From Chlamydiia bacterium (GTDB taxonomy: Bacteria; Chlamydiota; Chlamydiia; Chlamydiales; 2-12-FULL-49-11): a stretch of DNA of 10,118 nucleotides. The stretch is from the NCBI GenBank assembly GCA_044359535.1, contig JBIKLZ010000035.1:1-10118 (forward strand), read 5' to 3'. The notes under the pieces were generated by a model. That model had not been told where the DNA came from and did not search any database. It worked only from the letters and a program-made list of their open reading frames with translations. The number at the start of each line of letters is the position of its first letter. Within the stretch, counting starts at the first letter, position 1. Below are positions 1-10,118 of the stretch, in pieces. The position numbers and the translations under genes were made by a program.

Positions 1-427
1 ACTTGAAGGAGAGGATAACGTTTATCTTGATTATTGCAGTTCTAAAAAGTTTATTGATACAACCGATCCGGCTAACAGCCTTCATTGGAAGGAGGGAATA
101 GCCCATAAATACGAAGGCCTCCTACTTGCTTATACAAAACCTGAAAATAAACCTATTCTTCCTCCAGCAATCAGTGGTGTATCGGAAAACTCAATTTGGT
201 GTTCCCCTATAGGAGAAGGAAATATCGTTGTTCTAAATAATCAAACTGCCTATCACGCATTACCAAGCTATAATGTTGTAGAAGTGGCTTATGGAAAAGG
301 ATCTGGAGATATTTTTTTTGATCCTACAGATACCTCAAAGCTCAATACAGCGACTAAAGCCTCTCCTCTGTTTCGTATTGCTTGCGTAACCTTCTTTAAA
401 AAGGAAGAAGACACTTCTTCCTTTTAA
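1..427 (+). CDS. 3' part of a hypothetical protein (141 codons visible, 5' end outside window); possible 2OG-Fe(II) oxygenase/DSBH fold
   Basis: Not in the ORF track because it has no start in the window. Frame 2 is open from nt 2 to TAA at 425-427: LEGEDNVYLDY...CSPIGEGNIVVLNNQTAYHALPSY...SPLFRIACVTFFKKEEDTSSF*. The product guess rests only on the GxxvvlnNxxxxH...R-hydrophobic strand pattern. Confidence 0.75.
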   Translation, partial: LEGEDNVYLDYCSSKKFIDTTDPANSLHWKEGIAHKYEGLLLAYTKPENKPILPPAISGVSENSIWCSPIGEGNIVVLNNQTAYHALPSYNVVEVAYGKGSGDIFFDPTDTSKLNTATKASPLFRIACVTFFKKEEDTSSF

Positions 428-460
428 GAAATCATTCATTTTTTATTTGAATTTTTGAAT

Positions 461-490
461 TTGAACTAAAATCCCCCCCTATGATAGAAT
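461..490 (+). promoter_or_regulatory. Putative sigma66/sigma70-type promoter of rpsU-dnaJ
   Basis: TTGAAC (461-466), an 18-bp spacer containing a C7 tract, then TGn-TAGAAT (485-490). AT-rich upstream sequence; AAAGGAAG SD-like motif before ATG 528. Confidence 0.5.
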
Positions 491-527
491 CTTAAGGACA
501 ACTTATGAACAAAGGAAGCAAATCGAC

Positions 528-716
528 ATGATCACAATTAAAGTTCGCATTGGCGAAACACTAGAAAAGGCTCTAAGAGCTCTTAAAAAGAAACTGGATA
601 AAGAAGGGGTAATGAAGTCTATCAAGGCTAAACGTTACTACGTAAAACCTTCTGTGAATGAAAAGTTAAAGCAAAAACAGGCTCTAAAATTCAAAAAAAA
701 GACAAGGATTAGTTAA
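528..716 (+). CDS. rpsU: 30S ribosomal protein bS21
   Basis: 62 aa, basic; IKVRIGETLEKALRALKKKLDKEG...RYYVKPS matches the S21 pattern. Lies directly upstream of dnaJ, as in Chlamydia. Confidence 0.95.
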   Translation: MITIKVRIGETLEKALRALKKKLDKEGVMKSIKAKRYYVKPSVNEKLKQKQALKFKKKTRIS

Positions 717-722
717 TCTATT

Positions 723-1877
723 ATGGCTGATTTCTATAATGTTTTAGGTGTATCAAAAGATGCCTCTCCAGAAGAGATCAAAAAAGCGTATCGAAAGCTT
801 GCGGTAAAGTATCACCCTGATAAAAACCCAAATGATACAGCGGCAATGGATCGATTCAAGAAAATTTCTGAAGCCTATGAAACATTATCGGATGAAAAGA
901 AGCGAAAAATCTATGATCAGTATGGAGAAGAAGGTTTAAAAGGGGGGATGGGCGGCATGGGTGGCCAAGGCTTTTCCTCTATGGAAGAGGCTCTTCGAAC
1001 CTTTATGGGTGCTTTTGGTGGAGGTGGGGGTCAAGGCTCAATGTTTGACAACATCTTCGGTTTTGAGCAACAAGGAGGAGGCGCTGGTGGCAACTATCCT
1101 ATGCAAGGGGCTTCAAAAAAGCTTCAGCTCACTATAGATTTTGAAGAAGCTGCAAATGGAGTGACTAAAGAGGCTGTCATTAATAGAAACGTCTCTTGCT
1201 CAAAATGCAGTGGCCGAGGAGCTGAAAGTCCCTCTGATATTAAAACTTGCTCCACTTGTAAAGGTTCTGGACAAGTGCAGCAAACAAGGGGCTTTTTCTC
1301 AATGTCAAGTGTGTGTCCTACCTGTCATGGTAGTGGCAGTATGATATCTAAACCCTGCAGTCAATGTCATGGAAATGGAAAAGAGAAAAAGAAAGAAGAA
1401 ATAAAAATTCAAGTCCCTGCTGGAATCGATTCTGGAATGCGCCTTAAAATGTCAGGATTTGGGGATGCAGGTGAAAACGGCGGTCCTGCTGGAGATCTTT
1501 ATGTCTACATCACTGTTAAAAATCATGATGTCTTTAAAAGAGATGGGGATGATGTCTATCTTGATCTTCCTATTACATTTACTGATGCCGCATTGGGCGC
1601 AAAAAAAGAGATTCCAACCCTTTTTAAAGAGGCCATTATCCTTTCTATACCTGAAGGCTCTCAGTCAGGCAAGATTCTACGGGTCAAGGGGAAGGGATTT
1701 AAAAATGTCCATGGCAATGGGGTAGGAGATCTGCTAGTTCGATTAAATATCGAAACACCTGTCAACTTAACCTCTAAGCAGAAAAAAACCTTTTTAGAAC
1801 TTGGTGAAAGCTTAAATACACAAAACTCCCCTACAACAAAGTCATTTTTTGAAAAGTTAAAGTCTTTTATTAAATAG
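723..1877 (+). CDS. dnaJ: Molecular chaperone DnaJ (class A)
   Basis: J-domain with HPD (KYHPDKNP), G/F-rich linker with the chlamydial-type [15 protein letters not shown] segment, four CxxCxGxG zinc motifs ([32 protein letters not shown]), and C-terminal GDLYV motifs. Confidence 0.98.
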
Positions 1878-2600
1878 ATGCTAAAAAGAATTCTTACTTT
1901 TGTCTGTTCTACCCTCCTTTTACACAGCGAGCCTTTACCCTCAAAAAAGGGTAAAGTGGTCCTTATTCATGGGATTGTTGTTCACAATTCGATGTCCTCT
2001 TTACATAGACACTTTAAAAGAGAGGGGTGGGAAGTGCTTGATTGGAGATATCCTAGCAGGGAAAAGTCTATAAGTGATCACGGAAAGGATCTTTCAGCAG
2101 CATTAAAAAATTTTAACAGGGATGAAAAGACCCCCATTCATTATATTGCTTTTTCTTTAGGCGGTCTTGTTCTAAGATCTGCACTTCAAGATGAAACGCT
2201 CCCCTCTTCAACAAAAAATGGAAAGATCGTCCTTGTATCTTCACCTATCAATGGATCAAAACTTGCTCGATCAATGGATTTTTTGCCCCTTGCAGAAAAG
2301 GTCTTAGGGAAACATGCAGGCAAGGAGCTCTTGAAGACCCCGAAAAAGATATTTTCAGAGCAACAGTTTCCTGAAAACATCCCTATTTTAGTCCTTTCCG
2401 GAACATTAGGGTTTAACCCTGTCTTTTCTGAACCCAATGATGGTAAGGTTTCCGTTTCTGAATCGTGCCCAAAAAATCCTCATATTCATAAATATATCTA
2501 TTCTGGGCATAGTTGGATTTGCAGAAATCCAAAAGTGTTTGATGAAGCCATTGAATTTTTTACACAAGGTTCATCTTTACCCCCCTGTACTATTCATTAA
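1878..2600 (+). CDS. Probably exported alpha/beta-hydrolase (lipase/esterase-like)
   Basis: N-terminal MLKR plus hydrophobic stretch; oxyanion motif VVLIHG; nucleophile elbow AFSLGG (Ser93); NDGKV (Asp188); GHSW (His211). ATG immediately follows the dnaJ TAG. Confidence 0.85.
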   Translation: MLKRILTFVCSTLLLHSEPLPSKKGKVVLIHGIVVHNSMSSLHRHFKREGWEVLDWRYPSREKSISDHGKDLSAALKNFNRDEKTPIHYIAFSLGGLVLRSALQDETLPSSTKNGKIVLVSSPINGSKLARSMDFLPLAEKVLGKHAGKELLKTPKKIFSEQQFPENIPILVLSGTLGFNPVFSEPNDGKVSVSESCPKNPHIHKYIYSGHSWICRNPKVFDEAIEFFTQGSSLPPCTIH

Positions 2601-2607
2601 AAAGTGA

Positions 2608-2636
2608 TTGCAATCCCTTAGGAAAAGGGCTACACT
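2608..2636 (+). promoter_or_regulatory. Putative sigma66 promoter of tspO
   Basis: TTGCAA (2608-2613), 17 bp, TACACT (2631-2636). The -35 box lies within the perfect palindrome GATTGCAATC (2606-2615). Confidence 0.6.
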
Positions 2637-2655
2637 TCCCATAAAAGGGGGTTGT

Positions 2656-3132
2656 ATGAAAAACAAATCTATTTTTAGCCTTATTCTATGGTACATTCCT
2701 GCACTGTTTGTTCAATATTTTGCAGCAACAGCAACAATGAAAAGTTTGGACCCTTGGTATACAGAGCTTGTAAAAGCCTCTTGGAATCCCCCACCTTGGG
2801 TCTTTGGCCCTGTTTGGACCCTTCTTTATCTGATGATGTCTTTGTCTGTGTGGACAATTTATCGAACCGACGCTCCTAGAAGAAAAAAGTGGGGGGCCTA
2901 CGCCCTTTATTTTGCTCAATTAGGGGTCAATGGTCTGTGGTCTTTTCTCTTCTTTAAATGGAAGCTATTGGGTGGATCAGCCGTTGAAATATTTTTAATA
3001 ATAGCTATTGTCCTTTGGATGACAGTCCACTACTTTAAAATCAATAAAACAGCTGGCTGGCTTTTAATCCCCTACCTAGGATGGTTGATTTACGCCTCTA
3101 CCTTAAATGTGGCTATCTGGGTCTTAAATTAA
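2656..3132 (+). CDS. tspO: TspO/MBR family tryptophan-rich sensory (translocator) protein, about 158 aa
   Basis: WYTELVKASWNPPPWVFGPVWTLLYLMM, QLGVNGLWSFLFF and LLIPYLGWLIYASTLN are TspO hallmark motifs, with five hydrophobic segments. Start moved to ATG 2656 (AAGGGGG SD at 2645-2651) because the TTG at 2608 coincides with the predicted -35 box. Confidence 0.93.
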   Translation: MKNKSIFSLILWYIPALFVQYFAATATMKSLDPWYTELVKASWNPPPWVFGPVWTLLYLMMSLSVWTIYRTDAPRRKKWGAYALYFAQLGVNGLWSFLFFKWKLLGGSAVEIFLIIAIVLWMTVHYFKINKTAGWLLIPYLGWLIYASTLNVAIWVLN

Positions 3133-3142
3133 ATTGATGCCT

Positions 3143-3183
3143 CTTAAAAAGGATGCTTTATCCTTAAAAAGGTTCACTTTATC
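3143..3183. repeat. Imperfect tandem 20/21-bp duplication containing a small hairpin, between convergent genes (possible weak terminator)
   Basis: cttaaaaaggatgctttatc (3143-3162) followed by cttaaaaaggttcactttatc (3163-3183). AAGGAT-gcttt-ATCCTT stem at 3149-3165, followed by a few U residues on the minus strand. Confidence 0.5.
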
Positions 3184-3225
3184 ATTAATTCATCCATTCT
3201 AAAACGAACTAAAAAAGAGGGTTTA

Positions 3226-3852
3226 TTATATGAGTTTTGCCCTAGAAAAGACCTTAAATTGAGCAGCATTTAAGTTTCCTTTAATGTATGGATCACTGTG
3301 ATAATCCATCAAGGCACGCTGCGCTAGAATATAGCCGCTATCGCCTTCAAATCCATATTTTTTAAACACTGACATGTAGACAGGAGCTAGTAAATCCAAA
3401 ACAAACTTTCTTTTTCCCATCATCGGAAGGGCTAAATACTGTGGATTTATCAATTTATCTACCTGCATTAAAAAGGAACTTGTTTGCATCGCCTCAGATA
3501 GATCTTGTGTGATTTGCTGTGCTTTTTCTAAGCTCAACTCTTTATATTCAGAAATGCCAAATGCGTTTTTAAGAAGAAAAGTCCACTTCTCTGCATTAAG
3601 CTCACCGAGTTTTGGATGGGATTTTGACATTTCAATCACATCCATATTGAATTTACTTAAGCCATCTTGATTGCCAGGGTACAAAAGGGTTCTAATTTCT
3701 GAAAACTGGACTGGAATAATCATTTCAATAAACTTTTGCCATCTTGATGCAAGGGAATCTTGAGAAGTTTTAAGTTGTTGAAGATCTTCTAATTTTTTTT
3801 CTAAAATTTCTCGGATGTTTTCTTGAGCCTTGATGAGTTCTTCTGCTTTCAT
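3226..3852 (-). CDS. Hypothetical all-alpha protein, apparently two tandem protein C10 (C12orf57/GRCC10)-like domains
   Basis: 208-aa ORF with AAGGAG SD (3861-3866) 8 nt before ATG and its own promoter. The two halves resemble each other, and the motifs LSxExA...A...YGFxxD-G...Y..DPxI match C10 as I remember it. Confidence 0.7.
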   Translation of the reverse strand: MKAEELIKAQENIREILEKKLEDLQQLKTSQDSLASRWQKFIEMIIPVQFSEIRTLLYPGNQDGLSKFNMDVIEMSKSHPKLGELNAEKWTFLLKNAFGISEYKELSLEKAQQITQDLSEAMQTSSFLMQVDKLINPQYLALPMMGKRKFVLDLLAPVYMSVFKKYGFEGDSGYILAQRALMDYHSDPYIKGNLNAAQFKVFSRAKLI

Positions 3853-3879
3853 TGTTCATTCTCCTTAATGTAAATTCGT

Positions 3880-3908
3880 ATAGTAGCACCCTTGCTCGCG
3901 AAAATCAA
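3880..3908 (-). promoter_or_regulatory. Putative sigma66 promoter (extended -10) of the C10-like gene
   Basis: Minus strand: TTGATT (3908-3903), 17 bp, TGC-TACTAT (-10 at 3885-3880). Confidence 0.65.
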
Positions 3909-3918
3909 TCTCTTTTTT

Positions 3919-3953
3919 ACTGAAACACACCCTTTAAAGAAATGTGTTTCAGT
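3919..3953. terminator. 11-bp perfect inverted repeat just downstream of the repeat-protein gene; possible terminator, RNA-stabilising hairpin or operator
   Basis: ACTGAAACACA (3919-3929) / TGTGTTTCAGT (3943-3953), 13-nt loop. No U-tract follows on the minus strand (an A-tract does), so it is not a canonical intrinsic terminator. Confidence 0.45.
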
Positions 3954-3968
3954 TTAAAACAAAAACCC

Positions 3969-4805
3969 CTACTTAGCTAAGTAACAATCTTTAAGAGAAG
4001 ATACTTCTTCTGCAGATAGATCCCCTGAGAAAAAGACCGCATCAGCATGTGAAAAAGTGTGGATCGATCCATCTGCAAGCTCTAGTGCCATACTATTTGC
4101 TTGTGTCCAGAAGAAAAAAGTTACAGCTTCATTTGCTACCGCCATTTCTTTTGCTTCTTCAAAACTGATCCCATGGCAAACCCCCACTAGATTTAAAGAT
4201 TCTACCCCAACATATTGAATTAGATCGGCAAACGCTTCGTCTGCTTGGTCTACTATTGGATAGGTAACCCCTTCACAAGGAAGACAGCACATAACACCTT
4301 CCCCCTCTAATGGTTTTTTATCCTTTGTCTCATCTTCTGGTTGTGGATCTATAGGTTGTGGATCAAAAGGTAGAGCACAGAAATACCCTTCTCCATCTGA
4401 AGGTTTTTTATCCTTTGTCTCATCTTCTGGTTGTGGATCTATAGGTTGTGGATCAAAAGGTAGAGCACAGAAATACCCTTCTCCATCTAGGGGTTTTTTA
4501 TCCTTTGTCTCATCTTCTGGTTGTGGCTCTTGAGGTTGCGGATCAAAAGGTAGAGCACAGAAATACCCTTCTCCATCTAGAGGTTTTTTATCCTCTGTTT
4601 CATCTTCTGGTTGTGGATCTATAGGTTGTGAATCTTTAGGTTGTGGATCAAAAGATAGAGCACAGAAGTACCCCTCACCTTCTAGAGGCTTTTTATCTGT
4701 TGGTTGTTCAATCGGTGGTTGTGGATCTAATTTTTCAATGCCTTGTAGTGACTTTGGACATAGTGTTGCTAACGCAAACAATGAACTTATTAAAACTTTT
4801 TTCAA
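3969..4805 (-). CDS. Probably exported acidic Pro-rich tandem-repeat protein with a small C-terminal globular domain
   Basis: TTG start with AAGGAG SD just upstream; Sec-type signal MKKVLISSLFALATLC; aa ~27-177 are ~30-aa repeats; aa ~190-278 are unique (ISFEEAKEMA...TFFFW...DAVFFSG). Confidence 0.88.
   Translation of the reverse strand: MKKVLISSLFALATLCPKSLQGIEKLDPQPPIEQPTDKKPLEGEGYFCALSFDPQPKDSQPIDPQPEDETEDKKPLDGEGYFCALPFDPQPQEPQPEDETKDKKPLDGEGYFCALPFDPQPIDPQPEDETKDKKPSDGEGYFCALPFDPQPIDPQPEDETKDKKPLEGEGVMCCLPCEGVTYPIVDQADEAFADLIQYVGVESLNLVGVCHGISFEEAKEMAVANEAVTFFFWTQANSMALELADGSIHTFSHADAVFFSGDLSAEEVSSLKDCYLAK
4275..4727 (-). repeat. Intragenic in-frame tandem repeat, 90-bp unit (30 aa), about 5 copies
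   Basis: Units 4312-4401, 4402-4491 and 4492-4581 (adjacent pairs 87/90 and 85/90 identical), 4582-4686 (105 bp, one extra 15-bp DPQPx subunit), plus degenerate flanking copies. Consensus DKKPLDGEGYFCALPFDPQPIDPQPEDETK. Confidence 0.97.
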
Positions 4806-4856
4806 AATAGCTGCTCCTTTTTAGTGTTTATGTATCTTCTTACACAGAAGAATGAT

Positions 4857-4885
4857 ACCATAGCATTCTAAGTAATAAGGGACAA
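4857..4885 (-). promoter_or_regulatory. Possible sigma66 promoter of the repeat-protein gene
   Basis: Minus strand: TTGTCC (4885-4880), 17 bp, TGC-TATGGT (4862-4857). Weaker match; alternative -10 boxes lie nearby. Confidence 0.35.
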
Positions 4886-4922
4886 CTACAACTTTAATTT
4901 GAAATATGAATTTTTTAAAAAA

Positions 4923-5006
4923 TGCCCAAAACAGGACTTGAACCTGCACGACCATACGGTCAAGGGATTTTAAGTCCCTTGTGTCTACCTATTCCACCAT
5001 CTGGGC
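4923..5006 (-). tRNA. tRNA-Leu (anticodon UAA), 84 nt, CCA not encoded
   Basis: Reverse complement GCCCAGATGGTGGAATAGGTAGACACAAGGGACTTAAAATCCCTTGACCGTATGGTCGTGCAGGTTCAAGTCCTGTTTTGGGCA: acceptor stem GCCCAGA/TTTGGGC, anticodon arm AGGGA-CTTAAAA-TCCCT (TAA at 4972-4970), long variable arm, GGTTCAAG T-loop, discriminator A. Confidence 0.97.
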
Positions 5007-5030
5007 ATAAGATTTAGATGAACTTGCGAT

Positions 5031-5059
5031 AGTATAGTATAGAGCACTCTATTTATCAA
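5031..5059 (-). promoter_or_regulatory. Putative sigma66 promoter of tRNA-Leu
   Basis: Minus strand: TTGATA (5059-5054), 17 bp, TATACT (5036-5031), about 25 nt upstream of the mature tRNA 5' end. Confidence 0.7.
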
Positions 5060-5103
5060 GGATCTTTTTTTTATTAATATCAAATGCTCTATAGATTCCC
5101 TTT

Positions 5104-5958
5104 TTACTCTTGTCCTTCTGGAACTTTCATTGAAGGAGACAACACCTTTTTCATCTTTTCTTTTAATGTGAGAGGCTTTTGAACTTCCTTTGAGCCTTCT
5201 TGACTATGTAGAGGGGCCAAAGGGGCTTCAGAAATAAGATTTGGGTCCTCAAGTGATGGGAAAAGGGGATTTTTTAAGGGTGCAGATTCAGCTCCTTCTT
5301 CAAAAATAGTGGAGGCTTTTTTTTCATTTTGACTATTGATGATATCCTGATATTTATGAATGCTGTCAGAAATAAGGGATTCTGGGGGGGTTAAAAGATG
5401 GCTAAAAAGTGCTTTTTGAACGGGTTGCTCTCCTGATAGAGGGGTTAAAGATTCCTTTTCAACCCTTTTTCTATCTTTAGAATTTCTCTTATTTTGACCT
5501 TTCTTTGGATGCTTTTCTTTTGAAATACTTTTTGGAGATTCGCTTAATTCTACACTCTCAGTGGGTTCTTGGACCTCCCCTTCCTGTAGCTTTTGATCCT
5601 CTTTTTCTTTCTGATGTTCCTTAGAAGGCTTTTGTTTCTTTTTGTCTTTGGCTTTTTCTAAAGATTGCTTATTTGTCGATTCTGAACCTGAGCCAATCTT
5701 GATAGAGCTTTCTGTAGCCGCTTTCAACGCAAGACGTACTTGCCGCACTTGCTCTATTTCAAAATCTTGAGCTGGAACAAAAAAGGTGTGTGCCGGCTCC
5801 CCTGATCTATAGAAATAGGTTGTTCCAAAACAAACCACTTCAACAGCATCGACTAAATAGGTTGCCCCCCCTTCGTTTTTTGTATTTTTGATTTTTAATT
5901 TATACTCTTCTTTTGCTGATATGATGGTTTCTAGTATTGGTTCTCTTGTAAAATGCAT
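5104..5958 (-). CDS. grgA: GrgA-family Chlamydiae-specific transcription factor (CT504 homologue)
   Basis: N-terminus MHFTREPILETIISAKEEYKL...VDAVEVV.FG...F..PA.DFE resembles C. trachomatis CT504 ([21 protein letters not shown]...) from memory. K/E-rich middle and LLTPPESLIS motif. Lies directly downstream of gap, as CT504 does of CT505. Confidence 0.85.
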   Translation of the reverse strand: MHFTREPILETIISAKEEYKLKIKNTKNEGGATYLVDAVEVVCFGTTYFYRSGEPAHTFFVPAQDFEIEQVRQVRLALKAATESSIKIGSGSESTNKQSLEKAKDKKKQKPSKEHQKEKEDQKLQEGEVQEPTESVELSESPKSISKEKHPKKGQNKRNSKDRKRVEKESLTPLSGEQPVQKALFSHLLTPPESLISDSIHKYQDIINSQNEKKASTIFEEGAESAPLKNPLFPSLEDPNLISEAPLAPLHSQEGSKEVQKPLTLKEKMKKVLSPSMKVPEGQE

Positions 5959-5982
5959 AATTTATCTCTTCTCTTTAAACTT

Positions 5983-6984
5983 TTATATTGTTGATGCGAT
6001 ATATCTCATCAAATCACAGACTCTATTTGCGTATCCCCACTCGTTATCATACCAAGCAACTAACTTAAAGAAATTTCCGTTTAATTCTATTGATGCACCC
6101 ACATCTAGTATTGATGATAGGATACACCCTTTAAAGTCAGTGGATACCACTGGATCGTCTGTTACACCCAATATCCCCTTTAAAGAACCAAGGGAATGAG
6201 CTTTCATTACCCTTACAATCTCTTCTAGGGACGTACTTTTTTCAACTCTTACAGTTAAATCGACCACTGAAACATCATTGACAGGAACTCTAAAAGCCAT
6301 CCCTGTTAATTTTCCATCTAAAGAAGGAATGATCTTACCGACTGCTTTAGCAGCGCCAGTACTTGATGGAATAATGTTGTCTAAAATAGCCCTTCCGCCA
6401 CGTCTATCTTTTTTTGAAAGGCTATCTTGCACTTTTTGTGTGGCTGTCACTGCATGAACTGTTGTCATTAGCCCTTCTACCACTGTAAAGGTGTCATGGA
6501 CCACTTTTACAAGGGGAGCTAAACAATTTGTTGTGCATGATGCACAAGAAACAATGTTGTCTATTTTAGGATCATATTCTCTATGATTGACTCCCATAAC
6601 AAACATTTTTGCATCCGATGGCGCTGTGATAATGACCCTTTTTGCACCTGCTTCTAAATGCTTTTTAGCACCTTCAAGAGTTGTATAGATCCCTGTGGCC
6701 TCTATTACAAAGTCTACAGGGATATCAAAATAGGGAAGCTCCTTTGGATCTGCTTTTGCAAATACAGGGATCTTCTTTTCATCGATACATAAAAAATGAT
6801 CCTCAGCATGAATTTTTTTATGAAGGGCTCCATGAATAGTATCATATTTAAGAAGGTAGGCTAAACATTCTGGTGTTCCTAAATCATTTATGAGAACAAT
6901 CTCATAATTTGGATCCTCCAATAATGCTCTACATACCAATCTACCTATTCTTCCAAAACCACTTATTGCAACTTTCTTTTTCAT
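5983..6984 (-). CDS. gap: Type I glyceraldehyde-3-phosphate dehydrogenase
   Basis: GFGRIGR Rossmann motif, [10 protein letters not shown] catalytic Cys motif, [26 protein letters not shown]. Confidence 0.98.
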
Positions 6985-7032
6985 TTATTCCTTATAGGAG
7001 TATGAATGTTTTTTTCATCAACTATTGTTCTA

Positions 7033-7061
7033 ATAATAGAAGAGACTCAATGAAAAGTAAA
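7033..7061 (-). promoter_or_regulatory. Possible internal promoter for gap-grgA
   Basis: Minus strand: TTTACT (7061-7056), 17 bp, TATTAT (7038-7033), in the 97-bp rplQ-gap gap. AT-rich, so a chance match is possible. Confidence 0.35.
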
Positions 7062-7081
7062 GATGTGATTGCAGCCTTAGC

Positions 7082-7504
7082 TTAAACACACTCAATGAAG
7101 CAGGTTAATGCAGCATCGCCCACTCTTTTTTCAGAAAGAACGATTCTTGTATACCCACCAGGTCTTTCTTTATAGCGAGGACCTAATACATTAAATAGCT
7201 TATCCATTACAATTCTATCAATATTGTACATAGAAGTGTCCCCTTCTTTTGCCTTTCTTGCTTCTTTAGGTGTTAAAGAATTAAAATGCAATCCAAGGTG
7301 AGATAAAACTAATCTTCTTGCATGTAAAGTATCATTTTTAGCTAGAGTTACTAAAGGTTCAAAAACCTTTTTTAATTCTTTCGCCTTTGCTTTAGTGGTC
7401 GATATCGTCTCATGTTTAATTAGCTCTTTGGCCAAATTTCTCATCAACGCCTTTTTATGCGCCGTTGTCCTATTAAGCTTTGTCTTATTGTTTCTGTGTC
7501 TCAT
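7082..7504 (-). CDS. rplQ: 50S ribosomal protein bL17
   Basis: MRHR...KLNRTTAHKKALMRNLA...TTKAKAKELK...RPGGYTRI...RVGDAA, with the chlamydial-type insertion (NSLTPKEARKAKEGDTSMYNIDR). Confidence 0.97.
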   Translation of the reverse strand: MRHRNNKTKLNRTTAHKKALMRNLAKELIKHETISTTKAKAKELKKVFEPLVTLAKNDTLHARRLVLSHLGLHFNSLTPKEARKAKEGDTSMYNIDRIVMDKLFNVLGPRYKERPGGYTRIVLSEKRVGDAALTCFIECV

Positions 7505-7515
7505 TTCTTTGTCCC

Positions 7516-8613
7516 TTAAGCTTTATCCGCTAACGTTTTAACCATTTCTTTTACATTTTCACGAGTGATACCATATTTAGAAAGATCCATTCCCAAATAC
7601 AGTTCCATCTCATCTAGTTTAGCCTTAATTTCATTTAAAGACTTTTTACCAAAGTTTCTAAATTTCAACATATCTGGCTCTGGCATAATTACAAGTTCTG
7701 CAATAGTGTCAATGTTTGCCTGTTGAAGGCAATTTGTAGACCTTACTGATAACTCAATTTCATTAATTTTAAGATACAATTTATTTAAAAGTGTATCTCT
7801 ATCCCCTTCTAACTCTTCTTGGTCATCCTCATAAGAAATTGTCTGAAAACGCATTTCATCAAAAACTGAGAAATGAAGATTTGCAATTTGAGTTGCATAA
7901 GTGAGCGCTTCTTTTGGGGTAATACGTCCATCTGTAGTGATTTCTAAAACCAATCTATCCATGTCTGTTTCTCCCCCTACCCTAGCGTTTTCAACAAAGT
8001 AGTTGATAATTCTAACAGGTGAGAAAATGGCATCGATATAAATTTCGTTTACTACTTTATTAGGAAGCTTGATCTCTTCAGACGGTTTATATCCACGTCC
8101 AATAACTACTTTAAATGCAATTCTTCGGGTCATCGGCTTTGTTACAGTAAAAAGAACATGATCCTTATTAAGGACTTCAAACTCACCATCTGCAACCACA
8201 TCACCAAGAGTGACTTTGTAAGAACCTTTAGCTCCTTCTATCATATCGGAAGTGACCTCAAGTTCTTTTACGATTGTCTTTACAGATCGAGCTGAGGGAT
8301 CATCTCCCATTGGAAGCCTTCTTAATAAAGCCCCTTTGACATTTAAAATGATTAAAGTCATATCCTCAATAATACCTTCACAGGCCATATACTCATGGGA
8401 AAATCCCTCAAGCTCAATTGAGACAATGGCTGGTGACTCTAAAGAAGTTAACATGATTCTTCGAAGAGAGGTTCCTATAGTGTGACCAAAACCTCTTTCA
8501 AAAGGGCCAGCAATAATACGAGCCTTTTTATTGAAGTCTTCCTCCTCTTGAGCTTCGATTTTCACCTTTGTAGGTAGTTCAAATTTTCCATATTTTATTA
8601 TTGGCTTATGCAT
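7516..8613 (-). CDS. rpoA: DNA-directed RNA polymerase subunit alpha
   Basis: PFERGFGHTIGTSLRR, IDAIFSPV, alpha-CTD IELSVRSTNCL...FRNFGKKSLNEI; located between rpsK and rplQ. Confidence 0.98.
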   Translation of the reverse strand: MHKPIIKYGKFELPTKVKIEAQEEEDFNKKARIIAGPFERGFGHTIGTSLRRIMLTSLESPAIVSIELEGFSHEYMACEGIIEDMTLIILNVKGALLRRLPMGDDPSARSVKTIVKELEVTSDMIEGAKGSYKVTLGDVVADGEFEVLNKDHVLFTVTKPMTRRIAFKVVIGRGYKPSEEIKLPNKVVNEIYIDAIFSPVRIINYFVENARVGGETDMDRLVLEITTDGRITPKEALTYATQIANLHFSVFDEMRFQTISYEDDQEELEGDRDTLLNKLYLKINEIELSVRSTNCLQQANIDTIAELVIMPEPDMLKFRNFGKKSLNEIKAKLDEMELYLGMDLSKYGITRENVKEMVKTLADKA

Positions 8614-8651
8614 ATCTTTTTATTCTCCAAAATTTTTTACTACAGTGAACT

Positions 8652-9065
8652 CTATACTCTTCTTGTCTTTCTCGCTCTGCAACCGTTATGATCTACCGGT
8701 GTGATATCTTTAATCACAGTGATTGTTAGTCCACCGCTTGCTAATCCACGAATAGCAGATTCTCGTCCGGCACCAGGACCTTTAAGCTTTACCTCAATTT
8801 CTTTCATTCCCATTCCAGCTACAGTCTTTGCAACATCTTGAGCTGCAACTGTGGCAGCAAATCCTGTAGACTTTCTTGAGCCAGAAAAATTAACTTTTCC
8901 CCCTGAAGCCCAAGCAACAACATTTCCATGTGGATCGGTTACTGTGATGATAGTATTATTAAAAGTTGCTTTAATATGAGCCACACCACTTGATATGGAA
9001 CGCTTTTTCTTTGCCTTTACAGGCTTTTTTTTCATTACTTTTTTTACTGCAATATCTTTAGCCAA
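8652..9065 (-). CDS. rpsK: 30S ribosomal protein uS11
   Basis: [39 protein letters not shown] start with GAGG SD. Confidence 0.97.
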
Positions 9066-9083
9066 TCTCTACTTCCTCACGTG

Positions 9084-9452
9084 TTATTTTTTCTTGTTTG
9101 CTACAGTTTTTTTCTTACCTTTACGAGTTCTTGCATTGGTGCTTGTTCTTTGACCGCGCACAGGCAATCCAAGACGGTGTCTTGTCCCCCTGTAACATCC
9201 AATTGTAATCAATCTTTTGATATTTGATTGAACTTCGCGTCTTAAGTCCCCTTCAACAAGATAGGTATTTTGAAGATGAGAAGTTAACTGTGCAACTTGA
9301 GCCTCTGTTAGCTCTTCTGCTTTCATATCTTCGCTTAAATTAAGCGACTTAATTACATCAGCTGATCTTTTTGGTCCAATTCCGTATACATATGTTAACG
9401 CTATTACTAAACGTTTTTTCTTTGGAATATCAGCTCCGGCTATTCTTGGCAT
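9084..9452 (-). CDS. rpsM: 30S ribosomal protein uS13
   Basis: MPRIAG...ALTYVYGIG...EGDLRRE...[25 protein letters not shown]. Confidence 0.98.
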
Positions 9453-9470
9453 ATTTCATTAATCCTATAT

Positions 9471-10118
9471 TTAAAATTTTCCTGTTACTCTGTTTTTAGA
9501 CATAAACCCTTCATATCTTTGCGTTATCAGATGAGATTCTATTTGCTGACTCACATCTAGAACAACCCCTACTAAAATCAAAATGGAGGTTCCACCAAAG
9601 AATTGAGATATTGTAGGATCCACCGATAATAATTTCCCTACTATTGTAGGCAAAATCGCAATAAAAGCCAGAAAAAAAGCACCGATTGTTGTTATTCTTG
9701 TCATGGAGTGTTTTATGTAGTCTTCCGTAGCCTTTCCTTGGCGTACTCCAGGGATAAATGCCCCACTTTTTATCATTTCTGAAGCGATTTTATCAGGTCT
9801 AAATTGAAGAGAGGTCCAAAGAAAAGTAAAAACGATAATAAGAGTTACAAATAAAATAATGTACCCTAATGATCCTGGAGCTAGATATCCAGCTAAATTA
9901 TTGATAATCTGTGAGCGTTTGATTAACATAGCCACAGTTGCAGGAAACATCAGAAGGGATGAGGCAAAGATCACAGGCATGATTCCAGCAAAATTAATTT
10001 TTAATGGTATAAAAGGAGATTTTTTACTCTCACCTGTACTATCAATGGATCTGCGCGCATACTGAATAGGGATCTTTCGTACCCCTTGAAGAATCATAAC
10101 TGTACCGACAATAATTGC
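9471..10118 (-). CDS. secY: Preprotein translocase subunit SecY (C-terminal part; 5' end outside window)
   Basis: RKIPIQYA, IPLKINFAGIMPVIFASS, FIPGVRQG, GGTSILILVGV. The frame stays open to the window edge (AIIVGTV precedes the ORF-track Met at 10097). Confidence 0.97.
   Translation of the reverse strand, partial: AIIVGTVMILQGVRKIPIQYARRSIDSTGESKKSPFIPLKINFAGIMPVIFASSLLMFPATVAMLIKRSQIINNLAGYLAPGSLGYIILFVTLIIVFTFLWTSLQFRPDKIASEMIKSGAFIPGVRQGKATEDYIKHSMTRITTIGAFFLAFIAILPTIVGKLLSVDPTISQFFGGTSILILVGVVLDVSQQIESHLITQRYEGFMSKNRVTGKF

Follow-up and report, generated by a model that had tools for sequence, protein, structure and literature searches.

How does a chlamydial genome come to carry a gene for a protein resembling protein C10 (C12orf57/GRCC10), a small protein of eukaryotes, and what would such a protein do in the bacterium? 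The question is raised by a stretch of 10,118 nucleotides from a Chlamydiia bacterium (contig JBIKLZ010000035.1, positions 1 to 10,118), hereafter the window, whose minus strand carries, according to the list of open reading frames (ORFs) and the translation, an ORF of 208 amino acids starting with ATG at positions 3226–3852. An earlier note, made from the letters of the DNA, took its product, here termed P0001, for a tandem two-domain relative of C10, and proposed for it either a host-derived gene or host mimic, or a prokaryotic branch of the C10 family. The ORF is a real, conserved gene, and it very probably encodes a tandem C10 protein of a subfamily that is shared with eukaryotes.

The comparison of P0001 with Pfam-A by hmmscan matches one family, PF14974 (P_C10, Protein C10), with an E-value of 1.5e-8 and 35 bits, which lies above the curated gathering cut-off of 27 bits. 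By this profile test P0001 is a member of the C10 family, and the resemblance to the human protein noticed earlier holds when the PF14974 profile is used in place of the human C10 sequence. The stretches quoted at that time are present, with LSLEKAQQ starting at residue 106, DPYI ending at residue 190 (the range had been extended to 200) and IIPVQF...KLGEL covering residues 45–85. Two stretches of P0001 are reported on the profile, the best one placing residues 106–183 on profile positions 1–77 of 103. The match extends to the relatives of P0001, 44 of the 57 scanned reaching PF14974 at E ≤ 0.01 and 31 of the 57 scoring 27–59 bits, and is found in none of the 14 control genomes. NCBIfam holds no family for P0001. 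Precomputed annotation already places the PF14974 tag on P0001–P0005, and the ESM Atlas cluster that holds P0001 (61 members, 92% from Bacteria, most commonly Chlamydiota) is automatically named 'putative protein C10'. The next nearest Atlas clusters are arthropod and chordate 'Protein C10', with scores of 0.79 and 0.78 that serve as leads only.

P0001 is a tandem of two C10 domains on three independent lines. The best PF14974 stretch of some relatives lies in the N-terminal half (P0009, residues 5–92 on profile positions 1–91; also P0022, P0032 and P0037) and that of others in the C-terminal half (P0006, residues 105–192; P0007, residues 110–187), while many relatives display two stretches. 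The alignment by hhalign of the N-terminal half (residues 1–104) with the C-terminal half (residues 105–208), based on the 23-sequence alignment A3, reaches a probability of 97.1% and an E-value of 5e-11 over 72 columns, pairing residues 22–95 with 132–203 and placing P47 on P157, the turn at 57–60 on G167-F168-E169-G170 and G64 on G173. Finally, the AlphaFold2 model computed from a 65-sequence alignment, with a mean predicted local distance difference test score (pLDDT) of 95.8 and a predicted template modelling score (pTM) of 0.87, is all-helical and displays two similar sets of helices. The N repeat comprises helices 3–18, 21–29, 34–54, 62–76 and 80–98 and the C repeat helices 108–122, 125–133, (137–140), 144–165, 170–182 and 188–204, giving five main helices in each half of about 100 residues. 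The two-domain organisation suspected in the earlier note is thus recovered. The two domains, bundles of five helices with about 100 residues each, would have arisen by internal duplication. A search of the PDB with the P0001 sequence returns two rows at chance level (E 1.2 and 1.8), and Foldseek of the model against the PDB gives no match at E ≤ 1e-3, so that neither sequence nor fold retrieves a C10 chain, nor does the fold retrieve a known lipid- or ligand-binding family. PMC13478489 assigns residues 11–110 of human C12orf57 to a five-helix bundle.

Four close homologues, each of 208 residues, share 61–71% identity with P0001. A profile search finds the gene in 18 of the 400 scored genomes of the phylum, the window genome included, all of them in one order and spread over 14 of 212 genera and at least nine coded families; it is found in 0 of the 29 genomes of family f4, which has genomes of 1.0–1.2 Mb and is taken as Chlamydiaceae by inference. 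When one genome of each prokaryotic species is scanned with two peptide patterns from the narrower alignment A4, nine named loci emerge, seven in chlamydial metagenome-assembled genomes (MAGs) titled Parachlamydia, Simkania, Simkaniaceae, Rhabdochlamydiaceae, Chlamydiia, Chlamydiae and Chlamydia trachomatis, and two in the gammaproteobacterium Candidatus Berkiella. Among the 400 scored genomes of the class of Berkiella, the matches are confined to the Berkiella genome (G401) and one stop-containing match of 19 bits. These holders give substance to the suggested prokaryotic branch of the C10 family. A family widespread in free-living bacteria, which had been put forward as the finding that would speak against mimicry, is not observed in these scans, as the named holders are chlamydiae and Ca. 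Berkiella and the control genomes are empty. The bacteria named as holders live within protists, either obligately or facultatively. One of the nine loci (L014; CAMBZN010000002.1, positions 1–10113), titled as a Chlamydia trachomatis MAG, displays the order DnaJ, hydrolase, TspO, C10, GrgA and GAPDH of the window, its DnaJ being 87% and its GAPDH 84% identical to those of the window and the other four genes 61–70%. The species label of L014 looks doubtful, because this gene order is shared with the window and family f4 provides no genome with a C10-type gene.

The subfamily extends into eukaryotes. A profile search of 1.84 billion cluster representatives retrieves 149 proteins at E ≤ 1e-3, 80 at ≤ 1e-10 and 24 at ≤ 1e-30, with matches that cover profile positions 1–208 or about 22–205. 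A homologue search with the wide alignment A2 yields nine proteins, none of which adds a name. At least 78% of the A3 profile, comprising both domains, is spanned by 103 of the 154 proteins that match A3. Many relatives are 220–390 residues long with the two C10 domains at the C-terminus, and those of them that bear a name or source tag are eukaryotic. They include proteins of Goniomonas avonlea (P0023), Salpingoeca kvevrii (P0049), Andalucia godoyi (P0038, with the source label 'carboxylyase'), Monosiga brevicollis (P0067; XP_001745156.1, 'uncharacterized protein MONBRDRAFT_36787') and the diatom Helicotheca tamesis (P0080), together with three further EukProt entries that carry no species (P0042, P0054 and P0121). 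An N-terminal extension of at least 30 residues is present in 47 of the 62 eukaryote-like proteins, and in 36 of these 47 the first 30 residues contain at least three Arg or Lys, at most one Asp or Glu and no long hydrophobic run. Such a basic, acid-poor composition is typical of mitochondrial presequences. The protist two-domain proteins thus mostly look like proteins with mitochondrial-presequence-like extensions.

Extensions of this length are found in six of the 34 bacteria-like proteins, of which four contain a long hydrophobic run of the signal-peptide type and a fifth, P0112, appears signal-peptide-like by eye. At the level of loci, signal-peptide-like N-terminal extensions are carried by the ORFs of four of the 14 bacterial loci (L011, L018, L019 and L021). 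In P0030, P0091, P0112 and P0137, which group together in the tree, the signal-peptide-like N-terminus is followed by a short cysteine-rich stretch (CxC or CxxC) before the first domain. P0022, an extended bacteria-like metagenome protein of 376 residues, joins a GyrI-like/Cass2 domain (PF14526, PF06445; residues 13–162) to a complete tandem-C10 region (residues 166–376). The window protein has no N-terminal extension. It is aligned with its relatives from the first residues, helix 1 begins at residue 3 with pLDDT ≥ 95, and the first 30 residues include seven acidic ones (Asp or Glu). A cytoplasmic location is predicted on these grounds, and P0001, in which no export signal is recognised, would act inside the bacterium and not in the host.

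The relationship between the bacterial and the eukaryotic proteins was examined with a quick maximum-likelihood tree of 117 rows (103 full-length proteins trimmed to the domain region and 14 locus ORFs; 219 columns, LG+C20+F+G4). The backbone of this tree is weak and separates a eukaryote-like group of 52 rows from a group of 65 rows. The latter takes in every bacterial row, and some eukaryote-like rows occur at its base or interspersed in it. When a single split is imposed between 48 bacteria-like and 62 eukaryote-like rows, leaving seven rows free (P0037, P0039, P0044, P0089, P0107, P0118 and P0132), the log-likelihood is 47.1 units better than that of the free quick tree and the approximately unbiased test gives a p-value (p-AU) of 0.90. 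Since one split is not rejected by the data, a single bacteria/eukaryote division, and hence one interdomain transfer, is compatible with them. Both Berkiella sequences and P0016 form a group (support 100) inside a clade whose other members are unnamed bacteria-like sequences; this clade falls within a larger set containing the named chlamydial rows. This position suggests transfer between bacteria, and the Ca. Berkiella copy would probably be a secondary acquisition from chlamydiae.

A second tree is rooted by the duplication itself, the N and C columns being paired as in the hhalign alignment (72 columns, 206 rows, 103 sequences, LG+G4, quick search), and omits the seven rows left free above, together with P0061, P0086, P0090, P0121, P0126, P0128 and P0137, which have long branches. 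The N and C domains fall cleanly apart, 103 versus 103, with a Shimodaira–Hasegawa-like approximate likelihood-ratio test (SH-aLRT) support of 98, and the duplication is therefore older than the divergence of the bacterial and eukaryotic proteins. The root of the C-subtree adjoins a split between 43 bacterial plus four eukaryotic rows and 55 eukaryotic rows, and that of the N-subtree lies among bacterial rows. The branches that decide these roots have low support, 17–81. Bacteria nested inside eukaryotes are thus not recovered by duplication rooting in this tree, and transfer may have gone in either direction. The phylogeny called for in the earlier note has accordingly given a single split that is compatible with the data. 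A eukaryotic origin is favoured by the wide spread of the subfamily over eukaryotes and by the restriction of single-domain C10 to them, while the mitochondria-like features of the protist proteins and the position of the root keep a bacterial origin alive. An elaborate form of the latter, which we consider unlikely, would make the tandem C10 an ancient protein of the chlamydial lineage that was taken up by an early eukaryote before the divergence of the crown groups and recruited to the mitochondrion, with animal C10/C12orf57 as a later single-domain offshoot; it draws on the one-branch split, on the placement of the root, with weak support, beside or among the bacterial rows, and on the presequence-like extensions of the eukaryotic proteins. 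Whichever the direction, one interdomain transfer would suffice to account for a two-domain subfamily common to patchily distributed Chlamydiales, the amoeba symbiont Ca. Berkiella and many protists, with the duplication preceding the bacteria/eukaryote split.

The columns conserved in at least 82% of the 117 rows are W38, Q49, G57, G64, W90, F98, G167, G170, G173, Y174, Q178 and D187, and P0001 retains all of them except G57, which is L57 in P0001 and its close kin. The conserved positions are dominated by aromatic residues and glycines with a few polar residues and form no recognisable catalytic set; the protein is therefore read as a probable non-enzymatic binding module. Two pseudo-symmetric bundles would present the G-F-x-G-x-x-G-[YL] turn together with Q49, Q178 and D187 to a partner. 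To our knowledge chlamydia has no known counterpart of CAMK4 or ANKRD50, the partners reported or predicted for the animal protein. PMC11838199 describes C12ORF57 as enhancing the activity of CAMK4 through its autoinhibitory domain and mentions two yeast two-hybrid screens, and PMC13478489 presents a predicted complex of C12orf57 with the ankyrin repeats of ANKRD50. By analogy with these reports a protein partner is tentatively favoured as the ligand of P0001 over a small hydrophobic molecule, and must be regarded as possible, no more.

Taken as a whole, the proposal that P0001 is a real tandem-C10 gene product of a shared subfamily, cytoplasmic, the outcome of one transfer and a non-enzymatic binding module, is held with moderate confidence. 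A number of observations weigh against one or other of its parts. The best single stretch on PF14974 in a six-frame search of its own genome reaches 21.9 bits, under the 27-bit cut-off, and the score of the whole protein therefore depends on both halves. The halves are likened to the human five-helix bundle by description, and in the clade of the window protein the N repeat no longer has its conserved G57-F58. In the trees, which cover the tandem proteins and no canonical single-domain C10, the origin is known for 14 bacterial rows, excepting the window's own (nine named records and five coded genomes), and for eight eukaryotic rows by species name or by EukProt source tag only, and the remaining rows were assigned from their length, their N-terminal features and their place in the tree, in part once the tree had been inspected. 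The term 'presequence-like' denotes a crude rule of composition and not the output of a targeting predictor. A fixed protein partner sits poorly with the signal-peptide-like N-termini at four of the 14 bacterial loci and with the fusion of one relative, P0022, to a GyrI-like/Cass2 domain of small-molecule-binding type, and no conserved gene neighbourhood indicating function emerges from the C10 loci compared.

One alternative that gains from these observations is a carrier or sensor of small molecules or lipids, whose helical bundles would hold or surround a hydrophobic ligand that occurs alike in the bacterial cytoplasm, in the periplasm and in mitochondria. As relatives appear to reside in the cytoplasm, in the periplasm or outside, and in mitochondria, a small ligand would suit the family better than a fixed protein partner, and the P0022 fusion as well as the aromatic and glycine-rich character of the conserved residues point the same way. 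The neighbours, though unconserved, often handle hydrophobic compounds, with TspO in the window and a MerR-TipAS regulator, FadL, short-chain dehydrogenase, isochorismatase, FMN reductase and several alpha/beta hydrolases at other loci. However, no neighbour recurs across families, and TspO is simply common in the phylum, where 188 of 401 genomes have it; among the 18 C10-positive genomes the count is 11. The Foldseek result against the PDB, without a ligand-binding family, and the functional reports on C10 considered here, which concern protein partners, also speak against it. A ligand carrier is thus rather unlikely and ranks below a protein partner.

The host-derived gene or host mimic proposed in the earlier note fares worse. 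Read as a secreted effector, P0001 would reach the protist host through type III secretion or another export route and there imitate or disturb a C10-type protein of that host. The domain is otherwise eukaryotic, with arthropod and chordate clusters as the nearest further leads in the Atlas, and the named bacterial holders live in association with protists. Some members appear to be exported, as judged from the signal-peptide-like N-termini at four of the 14 bacterial loci and in several unnamed relatives, and at the Berkiella locus L020 an ankyrin-repeat gene lies two genes from the C10 gene. In contrast, a type III secretion signal is an unstructured N-terminus of about 20–30 residues, while residues 3–18 of P0001, which has no extension, form helix 1 with pLDDT ≥ 95 and the acidic character of its first 30 residues is unlike such disordered signals. 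No chaperone-like neighbour occurs at the C10 loci examined and the gene is found in 0 of the 29 genomes of family f4. The single split compatible with the data and the duplication root place no bacteria inside a host lineage, and the eukaryotic relatives look mitochondrial, leaving no obvious target in the host cytosol. Export to the host is thus quite unlikely for P0001.

The remaining alternative, a chance resemblance in which a generic helical protein merely looks like C10, can point to the single-stretch score of 21.9 bits, to the frequency of weak matches among helical proteins and to the lack of structural confirmation from Foldseek against the PDB, but is close to refuted by the whole-protein score above the cut-off, by the 31 of 57 scanned relatives at 27–59 bits and by the collinear match of both halves to one profile, the halves aligning with each other at E 5e-11.

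The features of the window that surround the C10 gene are collected in Table 1. The earlier note had seen a clean promoter and Shine-Dalgarno sequence in front of the gene. The Shine-Dalgarno-like AAGGAG is present, eight nucleotides 5' of the ATG, while the sigma-70 scan gives no minus-strand site at positions 3853–3968, between the C10 ORF and the upstream gene, and thus does not confirm the promoter. The window DNA is present in 24 metagenome runs from lake-water, freshwater or aquatic samples, and no RNA run is on record among these 24.

Table 1. Position and basis of the features described in the window
Feature	Position	Strand	Basis and remarks
Alpha/beta-hydrolase-like protein, 240 aa, hydrophobic N-terminus	1878–2600	+	Pfam matches all below cut-off
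TspO/MBR family membrane protein	2608–3132	+	PF03073, E 2.9e-39; convergent to the C10 gene
Complete coding sequence of tandem C10-domain protein P0001, 208 aa, stop codon included	3226–3852	-	ORF list, translation, PF14974 match, 4 full-length homologues
Predicted C-terminal C10 repeat, aa 105–208	3229–3540	-	PF14974 best stretch aa 106–183, AlphaFold2 model, conserved G167, G170, G173, Y174, Q178, D187
Predicted N-terminal C10-like repeat, aa 1–104	3541–3852	-	AlphaFold2 model, hhalign against C half, PF14974 best stretch in relatives
Shine-Dalgarno-like AAGGAG, 8 nt 5' of ATG	3861–3866	-	Sequence reading only
Repeat protein, 278 aa, signal-peptide-like start	3969–4805	-	No Pfam family above cut-off
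GrgA-like transcription factor	5104–5958	-	NCBIfam NF045799, 79.6 bits against a cut-off of 350, residues 1–166

The C10 gene lies downstream of the repeat-protein gene and converges with the TspO/MBR gene. A specific link between TspO and C10 was considered and rejected, TspO being common across the phylum; in family f4 it is found in 0 of 30 genomes. Only the same-genus genome (L003/L014) retains the gene order of the window; in L013, too, a GrgA-like gene stands next to the C10 gene. Other C10 loci display differing neighbours, namely a MerR-TipAS regulator, alpha/beta hydrolases, DUF2608, a short-chain dehydrogenase, an isochorismatase, a peptidase S9, an MIP channel, FadL, an FMN reductase and an ankyrin protein. 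The GrgA-like protein of the window is, judged by a score of 79.6 bits against a cut-off of 350, a divergent relative of chlamydial GrgA. The gene of the 278-residue protein contains 3.8 tandem copies of a 90-bp (30-residue) unit at positions 4297–4634, with 92% matches, which reads roughly DPQP..DET.DKKPL.GEGYFCALPF and is followed by a non-repeated C-terminal part; the terminator-like sites of the scan fall within these repeats, and a 168-residue ORF of L014 shares 34% identity with the protein over 146 residues. The hydrolase-like gene overlaps the dnaJ stop codon by one base, and its product scores 31.2 bits on DUF7379 (cut-off 33) and 23 bits on palmitoyl-protein thioesterase.

The bare C10 homology of bacterial proteins is not new, as database pipelines label them C10, and the novelty is smaller than the earlier note supposed since Pfam and Atlas annotations already carry the tag. 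The literature search found no paper on bacterial or tandem C10 proteins, most subscription journals lying outside its coverage. What the analysis adds is the tandem architecture with its confident two-bundle model, the distribution over Chlamydiales, Berkiella and protists with presequence-like eukaryotic extensions, and the one-split phylogeny. C12orf57/C10 is a human disease gene, mutated in Temtamy syndrome. Its function is described as little known or unknown in PMC11838199 and PMC13478489. A compact, confidently modelled bacterial protein with two copies of the domain and dozens of diverse relatives is tractable for structure determination and for the discovery of binding partners. The gene is common to Chlamydiales, to another amoeba symbiont and to a wide span of protists, in which its product seems mitochondrial, and this distribution is relevant to the debate on gene exchange between chlamydiae and eukaryotes.

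Compared with known systems, P0001 resembles animal C10 (human C12orf57, mouse GRCC10) in that each of its halves matches the PF14974 profile collinearly and is predicted to form a five-helix bundle of about 100 residues, neither protein having evident catalytic residues. In contrast, animal C10 is a eukaryotic protein of one domain, given as 126 residues in PMC11838199, while P0001 is chlamydial and has two domains in 208 residues; it thus falls outside the canonical definition of animal C10 as a single-domain eukaryotic protein of about 110–130 residues. Its nearest eukaryotic relatives are the two-domain protist proteins, for which the source records describe no function. These display the same W38, W90, F98, G170, G173, Y174, Q178 and D187 and align with P0001 in both domains, differing in the extensions of at least 30 residues found in 47 of 62, absent from P0001, and in their place on the other side of the bacteria/eukaryote split.

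A further comparison is with the 'eukaryote-like' proteins of amoeba-associated bacteria, which in Chlamydiae and Legionellales carry ankyrin, F-box, U-box and similar domains and are usually secreted effectors nested in eukaryotic diversity. The tandem-C10 proteins similarly place a eukaryote-typical domain, with a patchy distribution, in unrelated protist-associated bacteria (Chlamydiales and Ca. Berkiella). Unlike these effectors, P0001 has no recognisable secretion signal and the tree contains no bacteria nested in eukaryotes. The proper home of P0001 is an unnamed tandem-C10 subfamily that chlamydiae share with protists.

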